From assembly GCA_900321035.1 (NCBI GenBank), contig ONUH01000011.1:15050-79049 (forward strand): 64,000 bases of DNA, written 5' to 3'. Source of the stretch: an uncultured Selenomonadales bacterium (lineage in GTDB: Bacteria > Bacillota > Negativicutes > Selenomonadales > Selenomonadaceae). Position numbers and translations under genes: made by a program. Positions within the stretch are counted from its first letter, which is position 1. Each line of letters opens with the position of its first letter. Positions 5,895 through 7,944 of the stretch are shown piece by piece. The notes below the pieces were generated by a model. That model saw only the letters and a program-made list of their open reading frames with translations, did not search any database and had not been told where the DNA came from.

Positions 5895-6113
5895 TCATTT
5901 CGAGTGCTTTCCGTGCGGCGGATTCTTGCGCGGGTCATAGAGTCCCGCGAAGGCCAACCCCATCAAAAAGTTTGTATCCCGCTCGGCGAGCCCCTGGTTG
6001 AATTCCTTTTTCTCTTTCGCCGACATTCCCTTCGTGGCGGTATCGTAGTTCTTCTTGGTCATCAGCCCTTTCCACGGCTCATTATGCCCTGCGGCCTGAT
6101 CTTTCTTTGCCAT
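5895..6113 (-). CDS. Small Lys-rich protein (partner of upstream Pro-rich protein)
   Basis: 72 aa with AGGAGG 8 nt upstream of the ATG. Its N-terminus (MAKK...) and C-terminus (YDPRKNPPHGKHSK) resemble those of the 57-aa protein at 6990-7163. Confidence 0.5.
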   Translation of the reverse strand: MAKKDQAAGHNEPWKGLMTKKNYDTATKGMSAKEKKEFNQGLAERDTNFLMGLAFAGLYDPRKNPPHGKHSK

Positions 6114-6125
6114 TTACTCAACCTC

Positions 6126-6953
6126 CTATTTCATCCCTTTGGGGGAAGTCCAGTAGTCTTTCGTGCTTGTGGTCAGTGCAGCCCGGTTCAGCACGGTGTA
6201 ATAGGTTTCTCCGCCGCCGACTTTGCTGCCCACGACATTGTACCCCATCGCCATCGCCAAGGCCGTGTAAGACCCCATGCCATGCTTTTTCTGAACAATC
6301 CCGTAGCGGTTCGTGGTGAATCCCAGTTTCTTCGCCGCTGCCGGATGCTTATTCAGCCAGTCCCTGCCCATTCTTCCCTGAAGGTCGGACATAGCGACCA
6401 CTTTCGCGTTCTTGTTGAGAACTGCCCCTATCGTGTTGGATTGGGAACCGTACCCATACGCTTTTGAACCATGAAAATCGCTCGAAAAATAAAGCCCGCC
6501 GCCGTACTGCTGTCCCCTCTTGCCGCCTGTGCTGAAAGTGTTACTCGTCCGGAACATATCCGAAAATTTCTGAGCGGTCATACGCGCACCCTTGGTGTTG
6601 TTCGTGCGGTACAGCACGATTGCTCCTCTCTTCTTTGCCGCGGCTTCCACCTGGGTGCTCGTCACGACTTCCGGCTTGTCGTTCCAGTTCGCGGCGAGAA
6701 TCATCCGCTGCGTAATGTCATCATGAAAATGAGCAGGCAGTTGCACCTTCATCGCATTGTCGACGAAGGACGCGAGCTGCGTGTCGTTCATGTCCGTCAG
6801 CCGCATTGCCGTTGTCGTTGTCGGAGCCGGCTTCGGTTTCGGTTTCGGCTTCGGTGCTGGCTGTGGCTTCGGTGCCGGCTGCGGCTTTGGCATCGGCGGC
6901 GGCAGCGGCGTCGGAGGTGGTTTCCGCCCGCTGACCGTGTTTCGTCCTCCCAT
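6126..6953 (-). CDS. Protein with MGGRN leader, Pro/Lys-rich linker and possible ART-fold (polyvalent-protein-like) domain
   Basis: ATG at 6953 is preceded by GGAGGAGGG; the track ORF starts 10 codons earlier. The N-terminus MGGRNTVSGRKPPPTP is followed by (PKPQPA)n. Possible R...S...E arrangement (VLYRT, GGGLYFSSD, GGGETYYTVL). The fold call is tentative. Confidence 0.55.
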   Translation of the reverse strand: MGGRNTVSGRKPPPTPLPPPMPKPQPAPKPQPAPKPKPKPKPAPTTTTAMRLTDMNDTQLASFVDNAMKVQLPAHFHDDITQRMILAANWNDKPEVVTSTQVEAAAKKRGAIVLYRTNNTKGARMTAQKFSDMFRTSNTFSTGGKRGQQYGGGLYFSSDFHGSKAYGYGSQSNTIGAVLNKNAKVVAMSDLQGRMGRDWLNKHPAAAKKLGFTTNRYGIVQKKHGMGSYTALAMAMGYNVVGSKVGGGETYYTVLNRAALTTSTKDYWTSPKGMK

Positions 6954-6989
6954 GTTACCCTCCTCCCTGCGATAAATCAACAATCGCGC

Positions 6990-7163
6990 TTATTTACGCT
7001 TGCTCTTTTTGCTCCCGGCCTTCCCGCCGCTCTTGGAACCTTTCGCAGGCTTCGCCGGGTCGTGCAGGATGGTGATTGCCGTCCCGTTCCCGTAGCCGTG
7101 ATCCGAGAAGAATCCCGGCTCCCTTTCAGCCTCTGTGTCTTTTCCCTTCTTCTTGTCTGCCAT
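6990..7163 (-). CDS. Small Lys-rich protein (partner of upstream ART-like protein)
   Basis: 57 aa from the ATG at 7163 (MADKKKGKD...) with GGGGGA upstream. C-terminus HDPAKPAKGSKSGGK... resembles that of the 5895-6113 product. Confidence 0.5.
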   Translation of the reverse strand: MADKKKGKDTEAEREPGFFSDHGYGNGTAITILHDPAKPAKGSKSGGKAGSKKSKRK

Positions 7164-7176
7164 AATGCTGTCCCCC

Positions 7177-7944
7177 TTAATAAATCTCAACGTCAAGCTC
7201 GATCTGCTTGTAATAGTTCATTCCCGTGCGTCCGCGCTTTCCCGTCCAGCGAAGGCCCGTAATGCGGTATCTTTGCCCCGGCGCGAATACGAACTCGCCA
7301 AAGTTGCCGCCCGGTCCTTTTCCGGGCATCATCGCCTTCGTGGAAGCGGGCGCACGGATATTCAGTTTTACCGCCTTGTCGATGAAGCAGTTGGATTTCG
7401 GTGCCTTCGCGAAGTTGTTGCATGAGACGCTGACAAAGGCGTTGTCGGTGTATGTCTTTCCCACAAGCCGCTTCTGCAGCGTAGCAATGGTCAGCTTGTC
7501 ATAGTTCGCACAGCCAAGGTCTCTCATGTATCCGACACGGCAATAACGCGTCATGATCATGTTCTCGCCAAGATTGTGCATGCCTTTCATCAGCCCGTCT
7601 TTCATCTGCTGCTGGCTGCGCGAGAGCTTCAGCCCTTTACGCAGGGCGTTGTTCATGTGCTGCGACTCCGAATACAGAGTCCCCGGAACCGCGTGCGGGC
7701 TCAGATAGCTTGCGATGGCTGTCTTCGTCGCAACATCGAAATGCTGTTTCTTGAAATATCCGTCCTCGTCCGCCAACGTATGGAACGGGGAATTATCCGT
7801 CGCTGAAAACGGATTCCTTCGATGTCGTTTTTGAACCGGCGGCGGCACCGGTGCTGGTACTGGTACTGGTATCGGCGTTGGTACCGGTACCGGTGTTGGC
7901 GGCTGCGGCGGAGTCCGACCGCTGCTGGCGTTTCTGCCTCCCAT
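7177..7944 (-). CDS. Putative mono-ADP-ribosyltransferase (C3/VIP2-exoenzyme-like) with MGGRN leader and Pro-rich linker
   Basis: After the linker, the landmarks occur in family order: YSESQHMNNALRKG, MTRYCRV (Arg), DNAFVSVS (S-x-S), KLNIRAPASTKAMM, NFGEFVFAPGQRYRI (catalytic Glu; the first Glu/Gln of ExE is absent). Confidence 0.65.
   Translation of the reverse strand: MGGRNASSGRTPPQPPTPVPVPTPIPVPVPAPVPPPVQKRHRRNPFSATDNSPFHTLADEDGYFKKQHFDVATKTAIASYLSPHAVPGTLYSESQHMNNALRKGLKLSRSQQQMKDGLMKGMHNLGENMIMTRYCRVGYMRDLGCANYDKLTIATLQKRLVGKTYTDNAFVSVSCNNFAKAPKSNCFIDKAVKLNIRAPASTKAMMPGKGPGGNFGEFVFAPGQRYRITGLRWTGKRGRTGMNYYKQIELDVEIY

Follow-up and report, generated by a model that had tools for sequence, protein, structure and literature searches.

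The 64-kb stretch of contig ONUH01000011.1 analysed here (the window) carries a module of four genes, which we name A, a, B and b, at the opening of the late packaging and head operon of a siphophage or prophage of Selenomonadaceae type. Genes A and B encode proteins with nearly the same N-terminal peptide (the tag), each joined by a disordered linker to a predicted ADP-ribosyltransferase (ART) domain, and a and b encode small basic proteins. The large terminase gene lies directly downstream, which places the module at the start of the operon. The transcription order is DUF4417, A, a, B, b, large terminase, portal, protease, major capsid and head-closure gene, all on the minus strand (Table 1). 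Good ribosome-binding sites precede all four open reading frames (ORFs) of the module. The DUF4417 gene probably starts at the ATG at 8619, with the sequence MGELRYGQYYGG... and aaggagg 11 nt upstream; the equivalent protein in the phage of locus L001 has 214 aa. The nearest homologues of A and B are in Selenomonadaceae metagenome-assembled genomes. We compared the locus with other phages and with known proteins using AlphaFold models, Foldseek searches against PDB and BFVD, Pfam and PHROG profile searches, profile–profile alignment with hhalign, and scans of IMG/VR and INPHARED.

Table 1. Features of the tagged module and its downstream operon, in window coordinates; the last row refers to mycobacteriophage L5
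Feature	Position	Strand	Basis
DUF4417 gene	open frame 7954-8871, likely 7954..8619	minus	Pfam PF14386, 2.4e-72
Gene A, 255 aa: tag, Pro-rich linker and predicted C3/VIP2-type (R-S-E) ART domain	7177..7944	minus	
Tag of A, residues 1-10 (MGGRNASSGR)	7915..7944	minus	
Pro-rich linker of A, disordered, residues 11-45	7810..7914	minus	pLDDT 46-60 over residues 1-40
Predicted ART domain of A, residues 46-255	7180..7809	minus	invariant columns, Foldseek
Small partner a, 57 aa, MADKKKGK...	6990..7163	minus	MA.KK start, PGFFSD.GYG.G motif, Lys-rich tail
Gene B, 275 aa (from ATG): tag, Pro/Lys-rich linker and predicted PolyVal/PARP-type ART-fold domain	6126..6953	minus	
Tag of B, residues 1-10 (MGGRNTVSGR)	6924..6953	minus	
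Pro/Lys-rich linker of B, disordered, residues 11-51	6801..6923	minus	pLDDT 50-77; variable in homologues
Predicted ART-fold domain of B, residues 52-275	6129..6800	minus	near-invariant columns, Foldseek
Small partner b, 72 aa, MAKKDQ...	5895..6113	minus	MAKK start, helical core, basic tail
Large terminase	4222..5820	minus	Pfam TerL_nuclease 5.9e-55, TerL_ATPase 1.4e-21; phrog_9; directly downstream of module
Portal	2944-4203	minus	PHROG match
ClpP-type head-maturation protease	2133-2951	minus	PHROG match
HK97-type major capsid protein	849-2108	minus	PHROG match
Head-closure protein	156-503	minus	
L5 region: tagged ORF inside gene 1 end vs gene 2	1081-1419 and 1305-2084		

The leaders of A (MGGRNASSGRTPPQPP) and B (MGGRNTVSGRKPPPTP) are identical at 11 of 16 positions, and at 8 of the first ten, as the first-pass annotation of this DNA had noted; in the structure models each leader continues into a Pro-rich linker and then into a different globular domain. 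The back-translated pattern MGGRN..SGR has exactly two matches in the window, at the starts of A and B, with none expected from 100 shuffles. At three of the eight shared leader residues the codons differ (GGC/GGA, AGA/CGA and GGT/GGG), so the match has been kept at the level of the peptide and does not reflect a recent DNA copy. Recent gene conversion between the two leaders was rejected because of these synonymous differences at conserved residues. Homologues in both families keep the pattern MGGR[GN]..SG.

The first-pass annotation had also suggested looking for the MGGRN..SGR leader in other phage genomes. A scan of IMG/VR with the pattern GGAGG-(4-10 nt)-ATG GGN GGN MGN GGN N6 WSN GG returned at least 120 loci; stricter patterns requiring SSS gave one genuine match. 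Among the matches listed (122), 115 lead into an ORF of 80 aa or more, with MGGRG[AGS]SSG as the beginning of almost all of them. When the first 12 residues are removed, the tagged proteins form at least 35 unrelated clusters. Judged from these sequences, an M-GGRG-x-SSG tag begins the proteins of at least 35 families that are unrelated to one another, from hundreds of phage contigs, and the tag of the window is a local variant of it. The proteins that carry it include homologues of B, an R-S-ExE ART (Pfam PF01129, above its cut-off), a “papain fold toxin 1, glutamine deamidase” (Gln_amidase, PF15644, 2e-16) and three different HExxH proteins; most tagged clusters are without annotation. One tagged ART cluster (cluster 14) matches a “minor head protein” PHROG. 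The largest cluster, of about 131 aa, occurs in Streptococcus phages A25, Str01, A1, phiNJ2, phiST1 and SA01 and in Javan prophages, as well as in Dorea phage DO134P1 and Roseburia phage Jekyll, and is annotated as “hypothetical” everywhere.

Codon usage points to selection on the tag as a peptide: across 76 tagged genes, the conserved Gly positions use all four codons and the conserved Arg positions three or more. This mixture led us to reject an RNA-level explanation, in which the tag would reflect a Shine-Dalgarno-like sequence (ATGGGAGG). A eukaryote-type N-myristoylation signal (MGxxxS) was set aside, as the phages infect bacteria of the gut, rumen and soil and the proteins have no route to a eukaryotic cytosol. 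In 16 phages that have both A and B, the first 12 residues of the two proteins agree at 9.3 of 12 positions within a phage and at 5.3 of 12 between phages (permutation p <= 1e-5). The agreement holds for tags that have drifted, such as MAKTRSGLSKT, MSNSSSG, MGAGRGRTG and MGSGGMSSGLGR. A and B thus track something that is specific to each phage. Kept among homologues, matched within phages and found in many other phages, the leader is conserved and not a chance resemblance, which upholds the first reading of it.

In some tagged families the initiator Met is replaced. The Prp protease motif, MLxx(D/N)LQ(F/L)F'A, is found in ribosomal protein L27 and in the capsid and scaffold proteins of phage 80alpha (PMC9405229). 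In at least five protein families a Prp-like extension (NLQFF, NLQYF or NIQLF) stands in place of the initiator Met directly before GGRG or GGG; it fits the published (D/N)LQ(F/L)F'A motif, whereas the residue after the predicted cut is Gly and not Ala. The members are P0079 (a homologue of B), L171, the A homologue in L144, an L104 protein with relatives that start MGGRG, and an L033/L088 group with an MGGRG-starting relative in L104. One such phage (L087) has a classic NIQFF'A site on a scaffold-like protein. A and B of the window differ from Prp substrates in starting M-GGRN, without the extension. Removal of the initiator Met before Gly would give the same mature N-terminus as Prp cleavage. 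Because the Prp-site variants directly precede the tag, a free N-terminal Gly seems to matter.

The tag is also tied to a particular neighbour. Among 76 non-redundant tagged genes, DUF4417 lies immediately upstream of 37-38 (38 of the 66 immediate upstream neighbours), often overlapping the tagged gene by a few bases, and it is among the four upstream ORFs in 52. Another tagged gene lies upstream in 13 of the 76, forming tandem arrays. The first large ORFs downstream (n=47) match Terminase_3 in 28 cases and Terminase_6N in 23, the two sets overlapping. In a few phages the tagged genes follow an SPP1-type portal gene, the usual position of MuF. The converse comparison started from at least 593 DUF4417 relatives in IMG/VR, of which the best 80 were used and 76 loci were usable. 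A tagged gene starts within 150 nt of DUF4417 in 48 of these 76 loci and within 2.5 kb in 59 (11 further), and 17 have no tagged gene within reach. In locus L004, DUF4417 is located between terminase and portal. The family has invariant polar residues (D60, Y61, D87, S89, D93 and N102) and is sometimes fused to ParB_N. Its profile found only insignificant GH1-like matches among PDB sequences (E >= 0.16), and the literature that we searched on DUF4417 gives no function for it; one paper notes its fusion to ParB-CTPase folds in phages. We found no description of the “MGGRG” tag or of its linkage to DUF4417 in the literature searched. By gene neighbourhood the linkage is widespread, and it was not seen in the first-pass annotation. 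On this evidence the tag is very probably a functional, modular element linked to DUF4417.

Among cultured phages, DUF4417 was found in 495 records, including 385 from Mycobacterium, 57 from Streptococcus and 30 from Gordonia phages, and mycobacteriophage L5 has it as gene 1. In the L5 genome (L227, Z18946.1) the last part of gene 1 contains the start of an ORF that reads MGGRGSKGGPGPG..., in a different frame from the annotated gene 2; probably gene 2 is mis-annotated, or the old sequence is frameshifted in the G-rich stretch. In IronMan, gp2 consists of MGGRGGSGG, a Gly linker of about 75 residues and an HExxH domain in one ORF. JewelBug likewise has tag, Gly linker and domain in one ORF, and its gp2 is annotated as a “peptidase.” SweetiePie gp3 (L229), the “ADP-ribosyltransferase exoenzyme toxin,” is annotated from position 1676, while the tagged ORF (1337-2269) begins 339 nt earlier; the protein then consists of MGKRGGSGG, a Gly linker and an ART with R, STS and ENE motifs, and the gene for a 101-aa partner follows it. 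Str01_54 (L132, KY349816.1, 2501-2911) has its annotated start at an internal Met that lies 27 nt further downstream, which cuts off the tag. In DirkDirk (L231), a 114-aa protein encoded after DUF4417 in a tRNA-rich region (3611-3955) has the tag MGRGRGGG, the motifs LYHRTS...YGFFS...GEHVV and a C-terminal KPRKKRK; from its sequence it looks like a minimal H-Y-E ART-like domain. Recognition of the tag thus corrects the annotated starts of L5 gene 2, Str01_54 and SweetiePie gp3 in well-known genomes, and public annotations often miss the tag and its link to DUF4417.

The 255-aa protein A had been described as carrying C3/VIP2-type ART landmarks with a degenerate ExE motif, and both observations hold up. 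The Pfam profile ADPrib_exo_Tox (PF03496) scores 23.4 bits on A against a cut-off of 23.4, which is borderline; several homologues are precomputed as PF03496, and A matches the PHROG family “ADP-ribosyltransferase exoenzyme toxin” at 1.5e-5. In the AlphaFold model (pLDDT 86) roughly the first 45 residues are disordered and a confident globular domain follows. The best Foldseek match in PDB is C3bot1 (E 1.9e-11, TM (target) 0.72), one of 141 matches at E <= 1e-3, and the model also superposes on C3stau2, VIP2, Certhrax, CDTa and iota Ia. The predicted ART fold has an alpha-helical N-terminal lobe, as C3 and VIP2 do. In 30 homologues S172, S174 and E217 never vary, conservation at R133/R136 is at least 90%, and the linker is Gly-rich or Gln/Pro-rich and of varying length. 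R133/R136 correspond to the catalytic Arg of strand 1 in such ARTs, and S172 and S174 to the S-T-S motif of strand 2. A thus has the fold of the C3, VIP2 and iota toxins and their NAD-binding landmarks (R, an S-T-S-like motif and the catalytic E), while it differs from them in its identity of about 15%, in having no signal peptide or binary-toxin partner and in its position in a phage late operon. E217 lies in the motif GGNFGE, so that of the E/Q-x-E of the ADP-ribosylating turn-turn (ARTT) motif the second Glu alone is present; two residues before it, homologues have F, L or I (GG.[FL]GE). As this position is hydrophobic, the class of residue that A targets probably differs from that of the C3/VIP2 toxins. 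Sequence comparisons were less informative: a search of the INPHARED cultured phages by tblastn with A and B gave no match, their matches among PDB sequences cover the low-complexity linker only, and nothing was found among PDB sequences with the A family profile. The model and its conserved residues make it very probable that A is an ART-fold enzyme.

The structure prediction gives an ART fold for the 275-aa protein B as well, of a different kind. The looser R/S/E pattern assigned to it earlier was right as to an ART fold, whereas the clade is not that of A and the triad reads R-Y-E. B has no significant match in Pfam (PARP at E 0.048, below its cut-off, and nothing from ART-PolyVal at E <= 1). 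Among PDB sequences, the B family profile finds PARP12 (E 0.013) and tankyrase over the segment G-x-YG-x-G-x-YF-S....S..Y. In the model (pLDDT 88.5) roughly the first 50 residues are disordered and a confident domain follows, for which the top ten PDB fold matches are all ART-fold proteins, including 6kyf (prob 0.99), MbcT, RES toxins, PARP13, tankyrase and exotoxin A; 6kyf is titled “an anti-CRISPR protein,” and we take it to be the ART AcrIF11. Against BFVD viral models, B matches uncharacterised siphovirus proteins (E 2e-12), “ART-PolyVal-like” proteins (E 6e-5 to 1e-3, prob ~1) and a “capsid maturation protease and MuF-like fusion protein.” The key residues are Y115-R116-T117, G-x-Y155-F-S, Y166 and E249-x-YYTV. 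Among homologues Y155-F156 is near-invariant and Y166 invariant, and E249 is present in most and replaced in a few. Y155 corresponds to the Tyr of strand 2 (G-x-Y-F-[AS]) in the PARP/diphtheria-like clade, and E249 to the acidic residue that opens strand 5. At the strand-1 position of the His, the family reads Y-R-T (R116), and one homologue, P0091, has H (LYHT), as expected if R116 stands where the H-Y-D PolyVal clade of Iyer et al. (PMC5512222) has its catalytic His. The predicted fold of B thus resembles that of ART-PolyVal proteins, which are predicted to be virion-packaged early effectors as parts of polyvalent proteins (PMC5512222), whereas B is a stand-alone, single-domain protein and not part of a giant multidomain one. 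On the strength of its model, B probably has an ART fold of the PARP/PolyVal branch, in which R116/Y155/E249 is an unusual triad. A and B are then new variants of known phage and toxin ART clades, one with an [F/L]-G-E ARTT motif and the other with an R-Y-E triad.

The A-a-B-b order recurs in about 20 distinct loci of distant phages. These differ in their terminases (TerL_ATPase/nuclease, Terminase_3 or Terminase_6N) and portals (HK97-type or SPP1-type), and MuF is present in some and absent in others; their host labels are Selenomonadaceae, Acutalibacter, Oscillospiraceae, other Clostridia and Fretibacterium. In the full-module loci an a-type gene always follows A and a b-type gene always follows B, so a conserved small basic protein goes with each ART, in line with the first-pass annotation, which had noted one after each of the two. 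All a-type proteins start MA.KK and have an aromatic-Gly core (PGFF.D.GYG.G or DRW[DT]..G..V), and most have a Lys-rich tail. All b-type proteins have a short helical core (e.g., EEF.AY.RAMD.AN), and most have a similar tail. Searches by phmmer with a and b of the window found close relatives only, and both are fast-diverging. They are best read as inhibitors or escorts of the enzymes, possibly DNA-bound and co-packaged.

The locus had been described as a tandemly duplicated cassette, and part of the evidence would fit a recent duplication of two cassettes that have since diverged: leader and linker are common to A and B, and a and b both start MA.KK, are basic (14 K+R each) and have a weak pairwise match (E 0.007). 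Their profiles say otherwise. The A and B family profiles align over leader and linker only (prob 93%, E 2.9e-7), BLAST of A against B found nothing shared beyond the leader, and the catalytic domains belong to different ART clades without sequence similarity. The family profiles of a and b are unrelated (prob 0.3%), and homology between the two was rejected at that level; of the related termini reported earlier, the basic character and MA.KK starts stand and the family relationship does not. As far as sequence profiles can tell, these comparisons of A with B and of a with b refute a recent duplication, which we consider extremely improbable. Since the order is kept in about 20 distant phages, any common origin would be ancient.

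Some further observations concern the composition of the module. Two loci have an extra B-type gene in the order B-b-A-a-B (L134 2737-5413 and L136 4760-7890), so the module can grow, and within a phage every copy has the same tag variant (MSNSSSG.. or MGAGRGRTG..). A phage with A-a-B-b, L005, also has an Acb2/Tad1-hairpin gene (anti-CBASS/anti-Thoeris sponge-type) at 13397-13774, between MuF and scaffold. There is no recognisable small terminase between DUF4417 and the large terminase, either in the window (5821-7953) or in L001 (8703-10261), and b occupies the position of the small terminase (TerS). That b is the missing TerS is unlikely, as L004, L005 and L129 have a b-type gene followed by a separate TerS-sized gene, which in L004 matches Pfam Terminase_2.

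Our best explanation is that this is a conserved four-gene module in which variable effectors carry an address tag that takes them into the capsid, to be injected later; taken whole, we give this account an even chance of being right. That the function of the tag itself is capsid loading and injection of cargo we judge to be at, or a little below, the same balance. The module would be expressed with the late genes, and a and b would check or escort the enzymes inside the producing cell. Removal of the initiator Met would expose an N-terminal GGRN..SGR, and this Gly-rich tag would be bound by a phage component (capsid interior, scaffold or portal), with DUF4417 as a possible loader. The cargo would be enclosed in the procapsid and enter the next host with the DNA, where the two ARTs would modify host targets. 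This reading is based on the combination of a short terminal peptide, a flexible linker and an interchangeable enzyme, on the position of tagged genes in the packaging operon, on a domain repertoire that overlaps those of MuF toxins and polyvalent proteins, which comprise nucleases, metallopeptidases, ARTs and Tox-PL1, and on the Prp sites and the within-phage matching of tags. In the window, the portal, the ClpP-type protease and the major capsid protein might serve to receive or process tagged cargo.

Phage-delivered effectors are known in few cases, namely T4 Alt, the P1 Dar proteins, the N4 virion RNA polymerase and the hypothesised MuF toxins. T4 Alt, the classic precedent, is directed to the head by an N-terminal capsid-targeting sequence and enters the host with the injected DNA. 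Encapsulin cargo peptides and the P1 DarB signal are further examples of a short terminal peptide and linker that send enzymes into an HK97-fold shell, and we know of no sequence similarity between these signals and the tag. Loading in phage P1 needs helper proteins, which offers a working analogy for DUF4417 as a loader. As in T4 capsid targeting, A and B of one phage share an N-terminal peptide, and its variants match in 16 phages. The tag is unrelated to the T4 targeting sequence, no T4-type prohead-protease motif follows it, and it differs further in heading dozens of cargo families, in occurring in siphophages of Gram-positive-type hosts and in its link to DUF4417; the ARTT motif of A is [F/L]-G-E and not E-x-E. 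Like Alt, A is an R-S-E-clade ART encoded with late genes and expected to act on host proteins as soon as the next infection begins (PMC5512222). The domain types of the tagged proteins recur in T4 Alt, in MuF toxins and in polyvalent proteins, all of which are held to be head-delivered (PMC5576092, PMC3482391, PMC5512222). For MuF toxins, such as the MuF-ART fusion of Enterococcus EFV, loading into the head and injection have been hypothesised (PMC5576092, PMC3482391). These share with the tagged genes a place in the terminase–portal module, variable C-terminal domains (ART, metallopeptidase and Tox-PL1) and a small downstream ORF. Unlike them, A and B have no MuF or Phage_min_cap2 match, a tag of about 10 residues plus linker takes the place of the roughly 300-residue MuF, and the constant partner of the tagged genes is DUF4417. 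No MuF gene was found in the phage stretch of the window that we examined. As a universal partner of the tag, MuF was rejected, because the window and L001 belong to HK97-like phages that have a ClpP-type protease and lack MuF; a prohead protease is an unlikely universal partner, as the head systems differ.

Several observations weigh against capsid loading. The virion proteome of Str01 (CsCl-purified, 12 proteins) does not include the tagged protein APZ81907, while small terminase and holin are listed; this proteome is shallow, and its database entry for the tagged protein lacked the tag. For mycobacteriophages, we found no usable virion proteomics covering the tagged gp2/gp3 in the literature, and the paper on Roseburia phage Jekyll has no proteomics. 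The tag spans different head-assembly systems (an HK97-like one with a ClpP-type protease in the window, SPP1-like ones with MuF in other phages), so a single capsid-side receptor is not obvious. The tight linkage to DUF4417 could mean something other than packaging, and many tagged proteins are small, with no Pfam domain in the representatives scanned. Furthermore, the A family lacks the first E/Q of the ARTT motif and E249 of B is not invariant, so the enzymatic activity of both proteins is assumed. The earlier proposal that the leader is a capsid-targeting signal thus gains from the packaging-module position, the effector repertoire and the Prp sites, and loses from the Str01 virion list.

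The linkage to DUF4417 suggests another role for the tag, as a handle for DUF4417. This protein would then be an enzyme or adaptor that acts on the free N-terminal Gly, by processing or modifying it or by coupling it, for example, to DNA or another protein, with an outcome that need not be capsid loading. The reciprocal tight pairing, often with overlapping stop and start, extends from Firmicutes to Actinobacteria phages and includes L5 gene 1 and the MGGRG ORF that follows it; DUF4417 has many invariant polar residues, is occasionally fused to ParB_N and lies between terminase and portal in L004, and the Prp variants point to a need for a free N-terminal Gly. Yet the profile of DUF4417 finds nothing significant among PDB sequences, 17 of the 76 DUF4417 genes have no tagged gene within reach, some tagged genes follow a portal gene with no DUF4417 in the stretch examined, and phages with non-GGRG tags on A and B still have DUF4417 upstream; the adjacency could also just mark a module boundary. 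We consider a role of this kind, apart from packaging, rather unlikely. It may partly overlap with the capsid-loading account if DUF4417 is the loader. In such a combination, DUF4417 and the GGRG(x)SSG tag would form a widespread phage cargo-addressing system, in which DUF4417 recognises or processes the free Gly N-terminus, exposed by Met removal or by the Prp of the host, and hands the effectors (ARTs, peptidases, deamidases and many others) to the packaging machinery so that they reach the next host; we offer this as a tentative proposal. Such a system would span phages of Firmicutes, Negativicutes and Actinobacteria, including L5 (genes 1-2) and A25.

A and B might also be late-expressed enzymes that work inside the producing cell, like T4 ModA/ModB, on targets of host takeover or anti-defence, without being packaged, the tag then serving expression or turnover (Met removal, stability or timed degradation). 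The absence of the tagged protein from the Str01 virion list agrees with this, as do the many small tagged proteins with no toxin-like domain and the resemblance of B to 6kyf, presumably the cytoplasmic anti-CRISPR ART AcrIF11. Left unexplained would be the Prp site, of a type found on head proteins, before the tag in at least five families, the within-phage matching of tags, and a linkage to terminase, portal and DUF4417 and not to early genes; moreover, the tagged proteins have the same range of domains as the head-delivered MuF and polyvalent proteins. Action in the producing cell is, in our view, slightly less probable than the DUF4417 handle. A still smaller chance attaches to toxin–immunity cassettes that serve bacterial competition, through toxins set free at lysis, or prophage addiction, by stabilising the lysogen, with the tag as a conserved handle for 5' recombination or for export, as in polymorphic toxin systems. 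In favour, a fast-diverging small ORF of its own follows each ART, the cargo domains Tox-PL1/Gln_amidase and ART occur in polymorphic toxins, and MuF toxins are reported almost only in temperate phages (PMC5576092). Against this, there is neither a secretion signal nor an export apparatus, ARTs set free would have no way into neighbouring cells, Lys-rich tails as on the small partners are unusual for immunity proteins, some tagged ARTs (the L011 ART) have no downstream small gene, and the synonymous differences between the tags of A and B argue against recent recombination.

If capsid loading is correct, the 10-residue tag would be a sequence handle for phage-delivered takeover, anti-defence and toxin proteins in thousands of genomes, and a portable signal for loading foreign proteins into capsids. 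At least 35 tagged families have been seen, most without known function, and A and B add two new ART variants that always travel together. Tag and effectors are best grouped with phage-delivered polymorphic effectors; that the DUF4417-tag pair is a delivery or processing system of its own is a real possibility, though less likely than not. The pairing gives DUF4417 its first testable role, and cultured carriers exist among the Cluster A mycobacteriophages and in Streptococcus phage A25.

The genes upstream of DUF4417 in the window are a GGACT gene, two amidoligases, two DNA methyltransferases (one fused to ParB), helicases, a primase, PolA and an antirepressor. The GGACT gene and two Amidoligase_2 genes lie just upstream of DUF4417 (8958-12061, minus strand), and an Amidoligase_2-GGACT pair is also upstream of DUF4417 in L001/L002. 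They may represent a peptide-ligation or tagging system beside proteins that seem to need a free N-terminal Gly. Genes for an HNH endonuclease and a sigma-70 region-4 protein are located between helicase and methyltransferase genes (16289-17194, minus strand); these may be a packaging-associated HNH far from the terminase and a late-gene regulator. Right after the phage replication genes is a stretch of low GC content (27908-30937, plus strand; 44-48% vs 55-60% around it) that encodes defence-type proteins of the ABC-three-component (ABC-3C) kind (PF20277 CTD11 and PF10088 DUF2326). This is possibly a defence island, at the boundary between phage and host or carried by the phage.

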